Shown: piece after piece, positions 12,612-20,314 of the stretch | Layout of the letters: each line of letters starts with the position of its first letter | How positions within the stretch are numbered: the first letter of the stretch is position 1 | The notes under the pieces: model-generated | What the model saw: only the letters and a program-made list of their open reading frames with translations | Database searches by the model: none | What the model was told of the DNA's origin: nothing | Assembly (NCBI GenBank): GCA_048937405.1 | Contig: JBHLNF010000001.1 | Location: 848,785-912,784 of the forward strand | DNA: 64,000 nucleotides | Direction: 5' to 3' | Source of the DNA: Promethearchaeota archaeon | Lineage (GTDB): Archaea; Asgardarchaeota; Lokiarchaeia; Sigyniarchaeales; SOKP01 | Position numbers and translations under genes: made by a program

Positions 12612-13283
12612 TTATTGTAAGGCACCACAAAATACGCAATATTTAGCTTCAGGTTTCGCAGGTGCTCCACATTGTTCACACGTATTTGTATAACCCTCAA
12701 CACTAAATTTAACATGAGTTGAAGAACCATGGATAACTTCAACTTCGCTTAAATTTGTTCCACATTTTACACAATATTTTGGGTTACCTTTTACTTTCAC
12801 ACCGCAAGAGGGACATTTCATAAGAATACTCGTTCCACATTCTTGACAGTAATCCCTATTTTTTTCGAATTTTCTTCCACATTTAGGACAATATTTTACT
12901 TCCCCAGCACCGTATTCTAATATTGTGGGTACAATCGATAGAATAAATAAAGTACCAACAGGTATTATAGGAATCCAAATCTCATCAATAGTAAACACCT
13001 CTCCAACAATTAAAGCTGCCATAACAATTACAGTTATCCAAAATATTGCCCAAATTCCAATTATACCAATCCTTTTCTTGTTTTCAGAGTTAAAATCTAT
13101 AATTGAAGCAGTAATAGCGATTACTAGAACAACTCCAATAGGAATTATTGGAATCCAAATCTCATCAGTAGTAAACACATCTCCAATAACTAAAGCTGCC
13201 ATAACAATTGAAACAATTCCAAAAATAACCCATAATCCTATTGTTCCTATACTTAATTTCCTCTTAAGTTCTTTAGATGGCAA
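12612..13283 (-). CDS. Membrane protein with duplicated 2-TM unit and three zinc ribbons
   Basis: VMAAL(V/I)xGxVFTxDEIWIPIIP twice; six CxxC pairs. Confidence 0.75.
   Translation of the reverse strand: MPSKELKRKLSIGTIGLWVIFGIVSIVMAALVIGDVFTTDEIWIPIIPIGVVLVIAITASIIDFNSENKKRIGIIGIWAIFWITVIVMAALIVGEVFTIDEIWIPIIPVGTLFILSIVPTILEYGAGEVKYCPKCGRKFEKNRDYCQECGTSILMKCPSCGVKVKGNPKYCVKCGTNLSEVEVIHGSSTHVKFSVEGYTNTCEQCGAPAKPEAKYCVFCGALQ
12970..13210. repeat. Intragenic direct repeat, 180-nt period
   Basis: ggaatccaaatctcatcaRtagtaaacac...taaagctgccataacaatt at ~12971 and ~13151. Confidence 0.8.
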
Positions 13284-13420: not shown

Positions 13421-14902
13421 TTATTTTCTGAATGTATAATCTAAAACCGTGCCAATAATTACTAATATAAGGAAAGTACTAATAGAAACATTTTGAATCA
13501 AATACTCGCTAGGTGGGAGAATTCCAATGTAAAGTATTGTAAGAATGAATGAATATACTAGAAATGAAGTCCAAAGCGCCAATATTGTTGTTTTAACTGT
13601 TTTTTTTAAGGTAATACTAAGTATTAGTCCAATAGCAGCATAAATAAGAATTATAATTAAAGGGATTGGTACCCAATCAATTAGAGGTGGAGTTAGCCAA
13701 ACATACATAGTATATACTACTACAGGAAATATTAAGAAAAAGTTTACATAATACAACAAACGTCTCATTATCCTTTTTTCTTGATCTATTTTATACCATA
13801 AAACTCCAAAAGGAATAAATATGATCCAAGCATAAATTAAGAGTAATGCATCAAAAAAGGTAAATCCAACATTTATCAGATAATGTGTACCACTCCATGC
13901 AACGATCATTCCGTATCCTAAAATTTGTGTAAGCAAAATATGATATGTTGACTTTCCAATTAATGAAATCATCCGTGAAAATCTATTTTCCGAATATTGA
14001 GGTAATATAATCATTACCATTAGTACTAATACTGCTGAATAAGGGAATACTAAGAAATGATAATCTCCTCTGATTAATGGAATATCATTAATCATAAGAC
14101 GAAATCCAAAAAATTGGTAGTAAATGATATATGTCAAACTAATTGGGAATAAAATCCAAATAAATAAATTACGTCTTGAAAAAGGTTTAGGATTAAATGA
14201 AAACCAAAGCCCTAGACCAATTGCAGATAGATAGAATGGAAAACTTGTCATAAATATGCCAAGTAAATGAAATTCTTCCCAAGATGTAATTTCACCTATA
14301 AAAAAAAATACTATTAATTGAAGTACAATTTCAACAATAAAACATATGATTAATGTAAGGATTTGTTTCTTTGTAAAAGCCCAATAAACTAATGGAAAAA
14401 TTATAATAGATCCAAAAATTACAGGTATAAACCAATTTCCAGGACCCCAAAATGGTAAAATACCAGTAAATAATTGTATAAATCCATGATCCGGATAATA
14501 TTGTCCATGATACATTGCTGTAATATTAAATTGATAAAGAATTAGCCCTATTAATGTAGAGAAAGCATATAATACTAGAAAAGGAATAACATATCTTAAG
14601 ATTTTACTTTTAAAATAACTCCATGAGTATAATTCATTCAACTTAGCAAGTCCTTTCCTCTGAAAAGAAATACCCATATTAAATCCCATTATAACTAAAA
14701 ATACAGGAATTGATATGCGTTCCCATAATGTCACTCCAATCTCACTTTTAATCCCCCAATCTACTATATGATCAAAGATCACTAAAAAGATCATTACTGC
14801 CTTTAAAAAATCTATTTGGAAAAAATTTTTCCCTCTTTCTTCTAAAATTTCTGTATCTTTTTGAATTAAAACTAATTTAGTCAATGGTTTTCTTTTTGAC
14901 AT
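13421..14902 (-). CDS. Acyltransferase-3 (OafA-like) integral membrane O-acyltransferase
   Basis: IDFLKAVMIFLVIFDH, ISIPVFLVIMGF, NWFIP, IGKSTYHILLTQ; extra C-terminal TM helices. Confidence 0.8.
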   Translation of the reverse strand: MSKRKPLTKLVLIQKDTEILEERGKNFFQIDFLKAVMIFLVIFDHIVDWGIKSEIGVTLWERISIPVFLVIMGFNMGISFQRKGLAKLNELYSWSYFKSKILRYVIPFLVLYAFSTLIGLILYQFNITAMYHGQYYPDHGFIQLFTGILPFWGPGNWFIPVIFGSIIIFPLVYWAFTKKQILTLIICFIVEIVLQLIVFFFIGEITSWEEFHLLGIFMTSFPFYLSAIGLGLWFSFNPKPFSRRNLFIWILFPISLTYIIYYQFFGFRLMINDIPLIRGDYHFLVFPYSAVLVLMVMIILPQYSENRFSRMISLIGKSTYHILLTQILGYGMIVAWSGTHYLINVGFTFFDALLLIYAWIIFIPFGVLWYKIDQEKRIMRRLLYYVNFFLIFPVVVYTMYVWLTPPLIDWVPIPLIIILIYAAIGLILSITLKKTVKTTILALWTSFLVYSFILTILYIGILPPSEYLIQNVSISTFLILVIIGTVLDYTFRK

Positions 14903-15214
14903 TGTTTCAGGTCAACCTTTAGTAAAAATTTAAAATTTATTTAATAAATTATTTGAAGCTTATTAAAATATAAAAAATATACAGTCCAATTTTTATAATT
15001 AGAAAATATGTAAAAATTAAATTACCATTTATATAATTTTTACAGGTTAAACTAATCTAAAGAGAAGATTAATCTTTTTAAAATATAGATTCATATCACC
15101 CACATATTATCTAAAATCATTTATAACTTAGAAAAAACCTAAATTTTTAAATAAAATTTGAACACATTATTTATTTAAGTAGATTAAAAAAAGAATATAG
15201 AGAATTATATAAAA

Positions 15215-17203
15215 TTGGGTGCCGACAAAAATCAATCACTTTTAGAAAAACAACTAAAGACATTAGGTCAAAAGATTAGAATTGACATATTAAAAAAATT
15301 AAAAAAAAAACAATCTCCAATATCATTTTCAAAGTTACAAAAAGAAGTTTTAGGTCATAATCTTTCATCCATAAATTTATCTTTTCATTTAAACACATTG
15401 AAGGAGAGTGAATTAATTCTAACTTCTGATGAAGGATACTCCATTTCACTTTTAGGCGAAAAAATAATTGAAAAGATTTTGTCTATTGAAGAAATCCTTA
15501 ATAAGCAAAAAAATGCACAAATGATTCGAACCTCGAAATATTCGAAAGAATTATTTGATACAAGTAAGATTGAGGAATATCTTGTAAACGAGGGAGATTT
15601 AGAGCGATATTTAGCTAAACAAATATCTCATGAAGTAGAAGAACGTCTTTCTAAAACAAATATAGAATATATGACGGCTCCTTTAATGCGTGAATTTATT
15701 AATGTTGTTTTACTTGAAAATGGATTAGAAGAGGTTAGACACAGATTAACTCGATTGGGAACGCCCCCATTTGAAGTATTTCGGCTATTTGAATCTAAAG
15801 AAAAAGAGTTTTCACCAGAAACCTTTATAAAAAGACTAGGATCTGATGTTTCTGAGCAATTTTTACTGTTAAATCTACTTTCTAAAAATTTAGCTGATTT
15901 ATATTTGTCTGGTGAAATTGCACTATTACATTTAAATTATTGGAGCTTAAGACCATTAAGTATTTATATTAATTCTAAAACTCTAATTGATTATTTTTCC
16001 AAAAAGAATTCAATAAATCTCAAAAATGATATTAGTAGGAGTAAAAAAAACAGATTAATTTCTCAATTTATTGATATTTTATATCTTTTGAAACATTTTT
16101 ATTCAGAAGATTTACTATTAGGAGAATTCAACAAATATTTTCTATCGTGTTTTGCTTCACCTAAAATAAAACAATCCCATTTCAATATATTAGCATCCCA
16201 ATTACTCCGATTCAATACTTTTCTTAATGATGGTAAATCCCATTTATCTTTAGGATTCAATAACAATGGAAAAATCCCTGAAAATATTTTTAATCTTTCT
16301 CGTGTTGATAAGGAATTTTACAATTCCATGGTGTTTCAAAGCAAAGATCGCATTATGCCCTTATTACTTTCAAATATATTTGATAATAATTTATTGGATC
16401 CACAAGATAGTCTTTTAAAAAATTATATTGCAGAAAAAAATAATGGAGATCTCTTTCTGTGCAATTCAAATAATGAAACATTGTTGAATTCCTCTATAAT
16501 TCAAATACCTGACACTTACAATAACATGATTATATTAGATAAAATTCTAATAAATTTACACAGAATATCTGAAGAAGCAAAACAAAATGATGATAAATTT
16601 TTAGAATTATTGGAAAACAAGTTGAATTCTGTATTTGAATTCTTTAAATATAAAGAAAAATTGGTAAGAAAAAAGTTATATCCTCTTAAACAGTGGATAT
16701 TCTTTGTTTCAGAAATTCTAAATGAACAATGCGAGGATCTACTAAGGAAATCCCTGAAATCTATCAGTTTTTTCGGATTAAATGAAGCCATCCTTAATCA
16801 TTGTGGAATCGAACTCGACAGGACAGAAAATAGTAAGAAATTCGCATTTAATATTTTATCATTAATGAAAGAATTAATTGAGGAAAAAAATGAATTGGAT
16901 GATAATAATTTTATTCTGAGTCAACCTCATTACGATTCATATCTAAAAGATACATGGTATAATGGTAATTTACAATTAAATAAAGAAAAAAACCAATATT
17001 CCTCAAAATTGATAAGGGGAGGAACAAATCTTTCTCTGAATAAAAAGATATCCCTCTTTAAAAAGTTTCAAAAAATTATCAATGGTGGTACATTGTTTAT
17101 AGAAAAAATTAATAGAGATGAATTATCAGTTGAGGAATTATTAAAAAATCTTTTTAAATCTGAAGTAAAGGTTATATCTATTAAGGATTGTTTTTTTGGA
17201 TAG
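15215..17203 (+). CDS. ArsR-type wHTH + ATP-cone + degenerate NrdD (class III RNR)-like domain
   Basis: LSFHLNTL wHTH; IRTS...FDTSKI...LVNEG...TAPLMREFIN ATP cone; RLTRLG.P, INLHRI, ISFFGLNEA NrdD-like segments; no C-terminal glycyl-radical motif. Confidence 0.75.
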   Translation: MGADKNQSLLEKQLKTLGQKIRIDILKKLKKKQSPISFSKLQKEVLGHNLSSINLSFHLNTLKESELILTSDEGYSISLLGEKIIEKILSIEEILNKQKNAQMIRTSKYSKELFDTSKIEEYLVNEGDLERYLAKQISHEVEERLSKTNIEYMTAPLMREFINVVLLENGLEEVRHRLTRLGTPPFEVFRLFESKEKEFSPETFIKRLGSDVSEQFLLLNLLSKNLADLYLSGEIALLHLNYWSLRPLSIYINSKTLIDYFSKKNSINLKNDISRSKKNRLISQFIDILYLLKHFYSEDLLLGEFNKYFLSCFASPKIKQSHFNILASQLLRFNTFLNDGKSHLSLGFNNNGKIPENIFNLSRVDKEFYNSMVFQSKDRIMPLLLSNIFDNNLLDPQDSLLKNYIAEKNNGDLFLCNSNNETLLNSSIIQIPDTYNNMIILDKILINLHRISEEAKQNDDKFLELLENKLNSVFEFFKYKEKLVRKKLYPLKQWIFFVSEILNEQCEDLLRKSLKSISFFGLNEAILNHCGIELDRTENSKKFAFNILSLMKELIEEKNELDDNNFILSQPHYDSYLKDTWYNGNLQLNKEKNQYSSKLIRGGTNLSLNKKISLFKKFQKIINGGTLFIEKINRDELSVEELLKNLFKSEVKVISIKDCFFG

Positions 17204-17773
17204 TGAACTACACACAGCCTAAAAGCTGTGGCTTCCTACGAGTACACAACCGCTTCTAGTACGGGTTGGTCTGTATATCGTAGAAAACCATTCCATCGTG
17301 TCAGGAATGATTCCTCGTCCACAGAGGGTTTATGCGATAGGAATTCATAGTAATACTTAAAAGTTAAAAATTAAGTCATGATATTGAGTACTGAGTTGAG
17401 ATCTCGGTCTACATGAGTTCCACAGTCACATATAATATTTCTTTTGAAGAATAACCTTATTTTCAGTTTTTTGCTTTTACAACAGGCTTTTGTATTCTTG
17501 GACTCATCAATTCTTATTACTCTTTTACCTATTTTTTCAGCTTTATAGGTTAAGAATTCGACAATCCTAGATATAAAACCTGTACTGTGAATCAAATTGT
17601 CAAGGATTTTGTGTGTTTTATTCTTTTTAGTATCACCTATTTCTTTTTTTTAAAGTTAGGTTCATTTTAATATATTAGAGAACAATTAGTTTAAAAAAAG
17701 GAGTGTTTAATCATTTAATGATTTCTTATCTTATCCTCAAATCAATCTTTCCTTAAAGAGAGGGATTTTTTTG
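17203..17773 (-). mobile_element. Internally deleted IS200/IS605 (tnpB) element with both ends
   Basis: Reverse complement matches the left-end region, start codon, 3' part and right end (GAAGCCACAGC-TTTTAG-GCTGTG..TAGTTCAC) of the element at 18875-20314. Confidence 0.85.
17371..17640 (-). pseudogene. tnpB: tnpB fragment (RuvC-II region, Zn finger, RuvC-III)
   Basis: VEFLTYKAEK..IDESK.TKACC...CDCG..DRDLNS closely matches the intact TnpB; N-terminal ~290 codons absent. Confidence 0.85.
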
Positions 17774-17810
17774 GATAATAAAATAAGAGATTTTTCAACT
17801 ATTTTTAGAA

Positions 17811-18728
17811 TTATTCAGTCATTAACTCAGTTAATAAAGCTTTTCTCATAGGTATCCCATAAAAAGTCTGTTTAAAGTAGATAGCCTTCTCTGAAGCGTC
17901 AACATCAGGAGATATCTCTAAAACTCGAGGTAAAGGATGTAATAACCTGAAATTATCTTTTGTGTCTTTTAGATCATGTTCTCTAAATATATAAAAATCT
18001 TTTAACTTCTCGTATTCTTCAATATCCACAAATCTCTCTTTTTGGATTCTTGTCATATAAAGAACGTCTAATATATCTAATATTTTCCTATAATTCATTA
18101 TTTCTTTATATGGAACTTGTCGTTGTTGCAAAAAATCTTTATCTCGATTTCTCATCCTTAAGCTTTCTGGACTAATGAAATAAATATTTACATCAAAATT
18201 TGATAATAAAATTGAGAGTGAATGTACTGTCCTTCCATATTTAAGATCACCCATTATTCCAATATTCAAACCATCTAATGGGCCAATTTCTTCAGTGATG
18301 GTTAATAAATCTAATAATGCTTGGCTAGGATGTTCTCCACTTCCAGATCCTGCATTTATAATAGGAACTTTTGAAAATTTAGAGGCCATTCTAGCGGCTC
18401 CTTCAAGTGAATGCCTCATCGCTATACAGTCGCTATAATTTTCTACAGTTCTTATTGTATCTGCAATAGTTTCGCCCTTTTTTATAGAAGATACATCGCC
18501 TGAGTGGAATCCGATAACACTTCCTCCTAATCTATACATAGCAGATTCAAAACTAAGACGAGTACGAGTAGATGGCTCAAAAAATAATGTAGCCAAAATT
18601 TTCCCCTGAAGGAGATTTGAATTTTTAATGTGAATCATTTCACTGGCCTTCTTTAGTATATATTCAATATCTTCTCGATCAAATTGCTTCGCACTTATGA
18701 TACCTTCGCTAAATTTCTCTTTGAACAT
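17811..18728 (-). CDS. pyrB: Aspartate carbamoyltransferase catalytic subunit
   Basis: FFEPSTRTRLSF, HPSQALLD, GDLKYGRTVHS, HPLPR. Confidence 0.97.
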   Translation of the reverse strand: MFKEKFSEGIISAKQFDREDIEYILKKASEMIHIKNSNLLQGKILATLFFEPSTRTRLSFESAMYRLGGSVIGFHSGDVSSIKKGETIADTIRTVENYSDCIAMRHSLEGAARMASKFSKVPIINAGSGSGEHPSQALLDLLTITEEIGPLDGLNIGIMGDLKYGRTVHSLSILLSNFDVNIYFISPESLRMRNRDKDFLQQRQVPYKEIMNYRKILDILDVLYMTRIQKERFVDIEEYEKLKDFYIFREHDLKDTKDNFRLLHPLPRVLEISPDVDASEKAIYFKQTFYGIPMRKALLTELMTE

Positions 18729-18874
18729 TTAAAATCTCATTCAATATGTTTTTATTAACATTATGTAAATAAGATTTAAATTATTTTTTATTATGTGATG
18801 TTTATTCGAATAAAACCAATAGAACTAAAAAAATTTAAAATTTATGAATAATTATTATTTTTTTCATAAAAGCT

Positions 18875-20314
18875 CAAGGATACAGCTCCCTTTAGGGAGG
18901 TGATAAATTGAGCATTAACAGAAAATCACTAAATCCTTATCCACATCTCTTTTTTACTTCCCGAATTACTATCCTTCTAGAAATGAAGCTAACGCAAAGA
19001 ATTAGAATATTTCCCACTCACAAGCAAGAATTCCTTCTTTGGATCTTATCGGAGAAATGTCGTCTTTTATATAATTTTGCGTTAGCGGAACGAATGGAAA
19101 ATTGGCACAAAAATAAAAATCTACCAAGAGAAAAACGTCATTGTGTTGATTATCTTATCCAATCAAGAGCATTACCGGGGTTAAAAGAGAAATATCCAGA
19201 ATATAAATGGGTATATTCGAAGGTTCTCCAAACAATCCTTAAAAAACTCGAGCTAAACTATAAATCTTTCTTTGCATTATGGAATAAGGGAGATCAAAAT
19301 GCAAGACCCCCCCGATTTAAAGGGAAGAAGCATTTCACTACTCTTTGTTATAATCAGTCTGGCTTTAAATTACAAGAGAGATCAATCATCTTCTCTCATA
19401 AACATCCTTCAAATATCATACTTAAGTTTGAATTTCCCTCTCATCTTATTCCTCAAGGGATTATTAAGCATGTAGAACTCTTTCAGTCTGATGAGAGATG
19501 GTATATTTCCCTTACATATGATCTCAAAGTGCCTGAATATCATGATAATCACTCATATCAAGCATTTGATTTAGGAATAAATCAGACTGTAGGAGTAAAC
19601 CTTTCTGGAAACTCAATACAATTCACTCACAGAAGAGCAGACCTCTATTGGAAAAAAAAGATAGAGGAGGTACAGTCAAAACGAGATCATTGTAAGAAAT
19701 ATAGTAATAAATGGCATTGGTATCACAAAAAACTGCTTCAGATGATTAAAAAGTGCGCGTATCAACTGAAAGATTTCCAGCATTGGCTTTCAAACCAAAT
19801 TGTATCTAATACAAAAGCGAATACGATTATTGTTGGAGATTTAAAAGTAAAACAGATGGCTCAAAAGAAGAAAGGAACAAGTATTGCTAAAAAGAATAGG
19901 GTAAATAACACACTTAACCATTCAGTTCACAACACAGGTTATTTGTCACGATTTGTCGAATTCTTAACCTACAAAGCAGAAAAAAGAGGTAAAAAAGTAA
20001 TAAAAATTGACGAATCCAAGACTACAAAAGCCTGTTGTAAATGTGGAAAGCTCGAAAAGAGGACAATTTTCGAGAGAATTATTACTTGCGACTGTGGAAA
20101 TCGGATTGACCGAGATCTCAACTCAGCAATCAATATCATGATACGCTTTTTGTCAGAGAAACATAAATTCGATTTCTTATCGCATGAATCCTCTGTGAAC
20201 GAGGAATCATTCCTAACACAATGGAATGGTTTTCTACGACATACAGGTCAACCCGTACTAGAAGTGGTTGTACACTCGTAGGAAGCCACAGCCTTTAGGC
20301 CGTGTTTAGTTCAC
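18875..20314 (+). mobile_element. IS200/IS605-family element, tnpB only (IS1341-like)
   Basis: Left hairpin CTCCC-TTTA-GGGAG (18886-18899); right hairpin CACAGCC-TTTA-GGCCGTG (20287-20304) then TAGTTCAC; no tnpA; exact left boundary uncertain. Confidence 0.85.
18983..20281 (+). CDS. tnpB: RNA-guided endonuclease TnpB
   Basis: RIFP...CRLLYNFAL N-terminus, PRFK, AFDLG, CCKC..CDC, DRDLNSAINI; ATG 18983 preferred over the TTG at 18908, which lies in the left end. Confidence 0.93.
   Translation: MKLTQRIRIFPTHKQEFLLWILSEKCRLLYNFALAERMENWHKNKNLPREKRHCVDYLIQSRALPGLKEKYPEYKWVYSKVLQTILKKLELNYKSFFALWNKGDQNARPPRFKGKKHFTTLCYNQSGFKLQERSIIFSHKHPSNIILKFEFPSHLIPQGIIKHVELFQSDERWYISLTYDLKVPEYHDNHSYQAFDLGINQTVGVNLSGNSIQFTHRRADLYWKKKIEEVQSKRDHCKKYSNKWHWYHKKLLQMIKKCAYQLKDFQHWLSNQIVSNTKANTIIVGDLKVKQMAQKKKGTSIAKKNRVNNTLNHSVHNTGYLSRFVEFLTYKAEKRGKKVIKIDESKTTKACCKCGKLEKRTIFERIITCDCGNRIDRDLNSAINIMIRFLSEKHKFDFLSHESSVNEESFLTQWNGFLRHTGQPVLEVVVHS

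Follow-up and report, generated by a model that had tools for sequence, protein, structure and literature searches.

In this study, we followed up a preliminary description of a gene in a 64,000-nt stretch of Asgard archaeal DNA (contig JBHLNF010000001.1, positions 848,785 to 912,784; hereafter the window), which belongs to a genome of 4.47 Mb (G000, the source genome). The gene encodes a protein of 662 amino acids (aa) in which a winged helix-turn-helix (wHTH) domain and an ATP cone precede the body of NrdD, the class III ribonucleotide reductase (RNR). Judged from its sequence, this protein is a pseudo-enzyme from which all radical-chemistry residues have been lost, and its full-length reading frame is retained nearly throughout its family. 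As the wHTH–ATP cone–NrdD body is conserved without the radical residues, the likeliest reading is that of a nucleotide-responsive regulator misnamed as an enzyme in the databases. We hold with moderate confidence that the gene product acts as a one-component, nucleotide-responsive DNA-binding regulator and descends from a class III RNR that is no longer catalytic.

Catalytic residues and domain architecture

Where true NrdDs carry the cysteine of the RPxC motif ('RPFC' in the true NrdD of the source genome), the 662-aa protein reads 'RPLS', and P247, L248 and S249 are invariant in the 24 orthologues that were aligned. The finger-loop cysteine that forms the thiyl radical (MGC/CC motif), which the true NrdD of the source genome carries within 'SQCCRKF', is found neither in the 662-aa protein nor in any of the 24 orthologues, and it is also missing from all of the more than 100 wHTH-bearing representatives in an alignment of 122 sequences from the wider family; the RPxC cysteine is missing from all of these representatives but one (P0130). 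At the C-terminal end, the chain stops about 35 aa past the 'INGGTLF' strand, and its tail contains neither CxxC pairs nor an RxxGY motif. The tails of the orthologues of about 660 aa are likewise devoid of both, except for two chance RxxG[YF]-like strings (P0134 and P0141), and the match to the NrdD profile PF13597 is restricted to profile positions 279-492 of 562. A single cysteine, C530, is invariant, but it is peculiar to the family and not part of the finger loop. Against TIGR02487, the NCBIfam equivalog model for NrdD, the protein scores 64.7 bits, the cut-off being 326. The preliminary description had read the serine of RPLS, the finger-loop region devoid of an MGC/CC-type cysteine and the absence of the C-terminal zinc site and glycyl-radical loop from a single copy of the gene, and all of these features are borne out across the orthologues. 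It had also named a contrary outcome, namely orthologues that keep the cysteine and glycyl-radical motifs, and this did not occur among the orthologues checked.

The coordinates of the gene, its domains and the surrounding features are collected in Table 1. The position of the start codon is common to the orthologues, in which ATG, GTG or TTG is used. The N-terminal domain matches the Pfam family DUF7347 with 40.3 bits (cut-off 27.6) and, more weakly, HTH_20, HTH_5 and metalloregulator models, including the 'S..HL..L' recognition-helix pattern. DUF7347 is matched by all of 25 diverse relatives, and the invariant residues of this domain among the orthologues include R22, H58, L62, G74, Y75 and G81. 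The ATP cone is matched at E<=0.01 by 24 of 25 diverse relatives (best 3e-10), and the segment aligns residue for residue with the cones of the lineage's true NrdDs, including their unusual 'V-R-T' start. The blocks 'TAPLMRE..N..LLENG.EEVRH.LTRLG.P', which span the cone and the linker, are the blocks that are conserved in the lineage's catalytic NrdDs. By these sequence comparisons the cone is real at the level of the family, despite a sub-threshold score in the 662-aa protein itself, to which we return below. An AlphaFold2 model of the 662-aa protein, built on the 24 orthologues (pLDDT 73.8) and searched by Foldseek, matches the class III RNR structures 9dau, 9d3x, 4con, 8p28 and 1h79 over about 650 columns (E 4e-16 to 4e-9, TM 0.5-0.6, probability 1.0), with other glycyl-radical enzymes and class I/II RNRs ranking far behind. 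According to the model, the ten-stranded alpha/beta barrel fold of RNRs and glycyl-radical enzymes is present. The structural comparison to NrdD that had been proposed at the outset thus gave matches with E values down to 4e-16, and, together with the DUF7347 match and the family-level cone matches, it agrees with the initial assignment of an ArsR-like wHTH, an ATP cone and an NrdD-like barrel. The former finger-loop region (aa 256-435) is variable among the orthologues.

Table 1. Positions of the gene, its domains and neighbouring features in the window
Feature	Position	Strand	Remarks
Promoter box ATATCACC-N4-TATTATC	15093..15111	+	Upstream of the gene, about -120 from the start codon
BRE/TATA-like element CCTAAATTTTTA(A/T)ATAA	15138..15156	+	48 bp past the box; near-invariant in 20 orthologous promoters
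Second element, consensus cATATTATTTAGTTAAGCAGA	15162..15183	+	20 bp past the TATA; position (-52) and sequence conserved in orthologues
wHTH–ATP cone–pseudo-NrdD gene	15215..17203	+	Single open reading frame, TTG start, 662 aa
wHTH (DUF7347, ArsR/SmtB-like), aa 14-88	15254..15478	+	PF24038; putative recognition helix 'NLSFHLNTLK'
ATP-cone domain, aa 103-174, 'MIRTSKYSKELFD..KIEEYL...'	15521..15736	+	PF03477; most constrained segment
NrdD-fold barrel without radical machinery, aa 181-662	15755..17200	+	Pfam-detectable part aa 441-644
'RPLS', aa 246-249, in place of the 'RPxC' cysteine of true NrdDs	15950..15961	+	From the alignment of orthologues
IS200/605-type insertion sequence remnant	17204..17778	-	PF07282; inserted where the gene's stop codon lies; does not belong to the system
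pyrB (aspartate carbamoyltransferase catalytic chain)	17811..18728	-	PF02729, PF00185; convergent with the gene

Conservation and selection

Orthologous full-length frames are present in 130 of the 133 genomes (species) of the gene's own GTDB family. A search of 5.8 billion proteins returned 474 matches; among the best 120 of these, nearly all are 647-671 aa long, with 51-91% identity, 98-100% coverage and the same motifs missing, and two are shorter and probably partial. The ratio of nonsynonymous to synonymous substitution rates (dN/dS), calculated by the Nei-Gojobori method by region for nine pairs, is 0.13-0.26 for the whole gene. It is lowest in the ATP cone (0.04-0.16), followed by the first barrel segment (0.04-0.19), and amounts to 0.08-0.26 in the wHTH in eight of the nine pairs; the former finger-loop region and barrel interior are least constrained (0.23-0.44). 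The examination of distribution and dN/dS suggested in the preliminary description hence yielded a conserved gene rather than a decayed copy, and with full-length frames in so many genomes and this range of dN/dS values a decaying pseudogene is rejected.

Promoter elements

In 23 of the 32 orthologous loci, which come from different genera, the box upstream of the gene stands at a constant spacing. The element that follows it has the consensus CCTAAATTTTTATATA at -78 to -63 in the orthologous promoters and, by comparison with the archaeal promoter consensus, probably represents the transcription factor B recognition element (BRE) and TATA box. The second element is located at about -54 to -35, near the expected transcription start. 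The layout of box, TATA and second element is fixed in at least 20 loci from several genera, whichever gene lies upstream (S7, Zn-ribbon or acyltransferase), and autoregulation through the box is a reasonable inference from this conserved sequence pattern.

When the source genome was searched with the exact box and with a 24-nt position weight matrix (PWM), the site in the gene's own promoter scored 35 bits and only one other site in the whole genome scored above 18 bits. This other site (C7:75368-75391; L044:2369-2392; 27 bits) lies about 70 bp upstream of a 59-aa open reading frame (ORF), downstream of a gene for a TrmB-like wHTH protein and near small ORFs for Zn-ribbon and Sm-like proteins. 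A scan of the genus for the box pattern gave 79 matches vs 30 in a reversed control, an excess that arises because the own-promoter site is included.

Seven genomes of the same genus (L078, L081, L082, L083, L084, L085 and L090) contain a conserved, ORF-less intergenic region of about 330 nt, in which a box of the form ATATCACC-N4-ATATTAT immediately precedes a TATA-like CTTTAACTTTATA; beyond this, about 130 nt are conserved, with a T-run at their end. The region may be a small RNA gene governed by the same box; it has no Rfam match, and a pattern search did not find such a region in the source genome. Rfam likewise gave no match in positions 14800-18900 of the window or at the second box-bearing loci.

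Gene neighbourhood

The neighbouring pyrB gene, which had been mentioned only in passing in the preliminary description, turned out to be the dominant conserved neighbour. In the gene's own family (32 loci) the order is S12, S7, the gene, pyrB on the opposite strand and L44e, and pyrB adjoins the gene in 31 of these loci. Among 24 further loci sampled from other Asgard families, pyrB is nearby in 13: it lies directly upstream on the same strand, at a distance of 0-42 bp and in an operon with the gene, in six (L045, L046, L052, L053, L058 and L060), is convergent in four, has the gene's orientation and lies within 1 kb of it in two, and is 3.6 kb away in one. The flanking genes differ between Asgard families, and so the linkage to pyrB is more than frozen synteny. 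In addition, a true nrdD adjoins the gene in three lineages (L053, L092, where it is accompanied by thioredoxin and pyrB, and L096), and dcd, encoding dCTP deaminase, does so in one (L095).

Proposed function and alternative explanations

The idea of a nucleotide-sensing regulator, which rests on the constrained wHTH and ATP cone, the box in the gene's own promoter and the neighbours from nucleotide metabolism, is plausible. On the model of NrdD and NrdR, (deoxy)nucleotides would be bound by a dimeric NrdD-fold body together with the ATP cone, binding would alter the conformation or oligomeric state, and the altered state would position the two N-terminal ArsR-like winged helices on DNA. A likely target would be the gene's own promoter, where the protein might act through the box ATATCACC-N4-TATTAT upstream of the TATA and through the second element over the start site. 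The gene neighbourhood further points to pyrimidine and deoxynucleotide genes, pyrB first, as likely targets. In a more far-reaching version, which we put forward only tentatively, a whole dead RNR catalytic subunit, kept for hundreds of millions of years as the sensor of a transcription factor, would read the ATP/dATP ratio with its cone and the dNTP balance with its retained effector or substrate pockets and set the expression of pyrB, nrdD and dcd. This would make it the archaeal equivalent of NrdR and PyrR, constructed on another principle and found almost throughout a major Asgard family.

Several observations weigh against a nucleotide-responsive regulator of this kind. The ATP cone of the 662-aa protein scores 16.6-19.4 bits, which is under the PF03477 cut-off of 25.8, and the canonical 'KR' of VxKRDG reads 'RT', as it also does in the lineage's true NrdDs. 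Neither the exact box nor the PWM detected a site upstream of pyrB, nrdD, nrdG or the gene for a 602-aa NrdD paralogue (described below) in the source genome, and therefore no regulon can be defined; the box could belong to another factor. In the sample from other Asgard families, pyrB is absent from seven of the 24 loci (families f21 and f26), four contigs being too short to judge, and of seven distant members that were checked, four have no relevant neighbour from nucleotide metabolism. Moreover, families f1 and f3 share the order S7, the gene, pyrB, L44e, and adjacency to pyrB within the order may in part be inherited synteny. What was initially proposed thus stands in part. The conserved pseudo-enzyme is confirmed and its role as a nucleotide-sensing, DNA-binding protein is supported indirectly, whereas the suggestion that it is an archaeal analogue of NrdR controlling RNR genes is not upheld, given the missing boxes before nrdD, nrdG and the NrdD-like paralogue and the persistence of relatives in genomes without a class III RNR.

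The lack of a regulon, the four distant members without a nucleotide-metabolism neighbour and the collinear gene order in two related families would also fit a protein associated with DNA or chromatin that has a ligand or role unconnected with nucleotide pools, with the NrdD body serving as a scaffold or dimerization module and pyrB present through inherited synteny; the weak constraint on the barrel interior is in keeping with this as well. However, the most constrained part of the protein is the ATP cone and linker, that is, the nucleotide-sensing apparatus of real NrdDs, and pyrB, nrdD and dcd are found next to the gene in differing arrangements and phylogenetic contexts, and we consider this explanation improbable. 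We regard as similarly unlikely that the protein is an allosteric partner that binds nucleotides and modulates PyrB/PyrI, or NrdD in heterodimers, by direct contact, its wHTH serving for protein contacts or nucleoid tethering. This idea draws on the fact that in four loci (L045, L052, L053 and L058) the gene stands 0-3 bp downstream of pyrB, in the usual position of pyrI, that NrdD enzymes are dimeric and that a second pseudo-NrdD, without a wHTH, exists. It also draws on the location of pyrI: in each of the six gene-bearing genomes that were checked (G000, G135, G138, G143, G004 and G117), pyrI is either divergent from pyrB or not linked to it, while four gene-less genomes (G015, G016, G011 and G082) keep the canonical pyrB-pyrI pair. 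Yet a genuine pyrI is still present in the source genome (C7:20489-20920, minus strand, on the same contig as pyrB and about 846 kb from it), so that pyrI has not been replaced by the gene, and pyrI is likewise unlinked from pyrB in five gene-less genomes of family f31, so that the anticorrelation is not general. The result for a displacement of pyrI from a pyrBI operon is therefore mixed. It also speaks against a protein partner that the wHTH, whose fold is that of standard ArsR-type DNA-binding domains, is kept by purifying selection and that the family occurs in genomes without a true NrdD. The PyrI allosteric and zinc domains (PF01948 and PF02748) have no match in the 662-aa protein. A complex prediction with PyrB from paired 24-row alignments scored 0.02, which gives no verdict and was not used as evidence. 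As to individual genomes, pyrI is divergent from pyrB in G004, and in G117 about 4 kb separate it from the gene for the wHTH pseudo-NrdD, any pyrB-like gene being far away.

That the protein is still an enzyme, either an RNR or other radical enzyme using different residues or one that receives its glycyl-radical domain in trans, appears very improbable to us. The NrdD fold and barrel motifs (NL, GLNEA, QP and GG) are kept, NrdD-like proteins without a glycyl-radical domain but with the first cysteine exist (e.g. P0251 and P0253), and in three closed Asgard genomes a protein of this type is the sole PF13597 match. However, more than 100 representatives show no conserved cysteine at either of the catalytic positions, the sole invariant one, C530, being family-specific and outside the finger loop, the TIGR02487 score is far below its cut-off, no activase is linked to the gene, and the three closed genomes carry a separate NrdJ-like gene. 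For the reasons given above, we favour the nucleotide-responsive regulator over these alternatives.

Reductases and other NrdD-like proteins

The source genome has a true NrdD of 710 aa on contig C25, which matches the full profile with 477 bits and contains the motifs 'RPFCQ', 'SQCCRKF', 'CTSC...CPQC' and 'RVTGYY'. Its single NrdG above the cut-off is encoded on contig C19 (164 bits), unlinked to the pseudo-NrdD gene, and presumably serves the NrdD of contig C25. Within the 64-kb window no nrdG was found, in line with what had been noted earlier, and the check for a separate RNR, also proposed then, thus led to an NrdD that looks active from its sequence and to an NrdG, both on other contigs.

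A second dead NrdD of the source genome is 602 aa long (L002:1183-2991, plus strand; C26:92323-94128). It has an ATP cone and matches the NRDD profile over positions 7-504 only, without a wHTH or a C-terminal domain; it reads 'RPFT' instead of RPFC, its finger loop is deleted, and its N-terminal half is 46% identical to the true NrdD. This frame of about 600 aa is retained by the majority of genomes in the genus and by many in the family. Six further representatives (P0234, P0240, P0251, P0253, P0215 and P0268) combine two ATP cones with a strong NRDD match (227-339 bits), and because this match ends at about profile position 465-504 of 562 they are taken to lack the glycyl-radical domain. The RPxC cysteine is retained in some of them, such as P0251 and P0253, and these proteins could be split enzymes or further pseudo-enzymes.

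Wider family and evolution

A HMMER search of 1.84 billion cluster representatives identified 718 relatives. Beyond the 660-aa group these include proteins of 700-890 aa with the same order of wHTH, ATP cone and NrdD, and in many of the longer wHTH-bearing members both CxxC pairs are still present, together with a degenerate 'G-x-Y' left over from the radical loop. In a FastTree phylogeny of the region that begins with the ATP cone, with true NrdDs as the root and read from its topology alone, the wHTH proteins form one clade apart from the true NrdDs. Zn-ribbon forms are basal on short branches, and the Zn-less forms, namely the family of the window protein and the 700-890-aa type of a sister family, are nested. 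Therefore the fusion with the wHTH and the loss of the cysteines likely came first in these sequences, and the decay or loss of the C-terminal domain later.

The named database members that were looked up are all from Asgard lineages (Loki-, Hel-, Odin-, Atabey- and Promethearchaeota). An Asgard-only superfamily is nevertheless not upheld, as the commonest phyla given for ESM Atlas clusters that have this set of domains are Nitrososphaerota, Bathyarchaeota, Thermoproteota and Nanobdellota, and the superfamily is probably archaea-wide.

In three closed genomes from a sister family of the same order (G135, G138 and G143), the wHTH pseudo-NrdD is the only PF13597 match, and neither a true class III RNR nor a PF02867 match above noise was found. 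The pseudo-NrdD family does not depend on a class III RNR. The pseudo-NrdDs of these three genomes are 703-750 aa long and are encoded within or close to an operon that includes pyrB. As candidate reductases, the three genomes offer only ORFs of 769-892 aa with a weak NrdJ-like match (E 1e-10 to 1e-13).

Comparison with known systems

Class III NrdDs with an N-terminal ATP cone, such as those of Prevotella copri (8P23), Streptococcus thermophilus (9D3X) and Thermotoga maritima (4COI), have the same fold and the same order of cone and barrel. The 662-aa protein shares with NrdD the motifs around NLxR, GLNEA, QP and GG, and its cone and linker blocks are nearly identical to those of archaeal true NrdDs. 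Unlike NrdD, it has an additional N-terminal wHTH and lacks the thiyl cysteine, the second cysteine, the Zn ribbon, the glycyl-radical domain and a linked activase.

NrdR, the bacterial repressor of nrd operons, consists of a Zn ribbon and an ATP cone (PMC9110341, PMC12176259). In both proteins a DNA-binding domain is joined to an ATP cone, and by analogy the same logic, in which nucleotides govern the oligomeric state and this in turn DNA binding, is proposed here. However, the DNA-binding domain is a Zn ribbon in NrdR and an ArsR-like wHTH without Cys pairs in the 662-aa protein, and NrdR has about 150-170 aa, compared with 662 aa and hence some 500 extra residues of dead reductase here. Furthermore, in contrast to NrdR, no box is shared with the nrd promoters of the source genome, and the strongest linkage is to pyrB rather than to nrd genes. 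The likeness to ArsR/SmtB regulators is confined to the N-terminal 90 aa, which match DUF7347 above its cut-off; ArsR proteins, with a length of about 100-120 aa, detect metals inside the dimer of their wHTH domains, whereas the proposed sensor of the 662-aa protein is an enzyme-derived module of 570 aa.

Among the longer relatives (700-890 aa), the 769-aa protein of Ca. Atabeyarchaeum deiterrae (WXG45871.1) has the same domain order and has lost both catalytic cysteines. The longer relatives often have pyrB nearby too, and the 660-aa form, which is nested among them in the tree, differs from them in lacking the entire C-terminal domain.

In a search of full-text literature, neither a wHTH-NrdD fusion nor DUF7347 nor a dead NrdD acting as a regulator was found to be described, and the sole mention of an Asgard nrdD that was found concerns Tn7 attachment sites. 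To our knowledge, the regulation of nucleotide synthesis in archaea is largely unknown. The gene described here provides a concrete protein and DNA box for a candidate regulator that is near-universal in an Asgard family and has relatives in other archaeal phyla. Like NrdR, it would be a one-component regulator with an ATP cone; what is new is that DNA binding would fall to another type of domain and sensing to an entire dead enzyme. If this is true, an entire allosteric enzyme has been recycled as a DNA-binding sensor, which would extend the NrdR principle of an ATP cone combined with a DNA-binding domain.

As database records give such dead proteins the name of a reductase or regulator ('anaerobic ribonucleoside-triphosphate reductase' or 'HxlR/ArsR regulator'), metabolic reconstructions can be misled where the former name is used. 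In the three closed Asgard genomes the dead form is the only NrdD-family match, so that crediting them with a class III RNR would be wrong, and the supply of dNTPs in these archaea merits attention.

Other features of the window

In most members of the family the S7 gene (rpsG) is directly upstream of the gene. In the window, two genes on the minus strand lie between them, encoding a multi-Zn-ribbon protein of 223 aa (12612-13283) and an Acyl_transf_3 membrane protein of 493 aa (13421-14902), and insertion sequence (IS) copies have been inserted downstream of the gene.

The IS remnant next to the gene is 574 bp long and carries a 74-aa C-terminal fragment of TnpB (17371-17595) plus the 3' end of the element. 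Positions 17201-17590 are 81% identical to 19925-20314, the 3' part of a full element at 18908-20314, and a 12-bp direct repeat, TTTTTTTGGATA, flanks the remnant (17190-17203 and 17766-17778). Truncation of the gene by this IS is rejected: the remnant is inserted precisely at the stop codon and has left the C-terminus (...DCFFG) unaltered and like that of the orthologues, and in IS-free orthologues about 33 bp separate the stop codon of the gene from that of the convergent pyrB. The preliminary description had come to the same view of the adjacent IS from the window itself.

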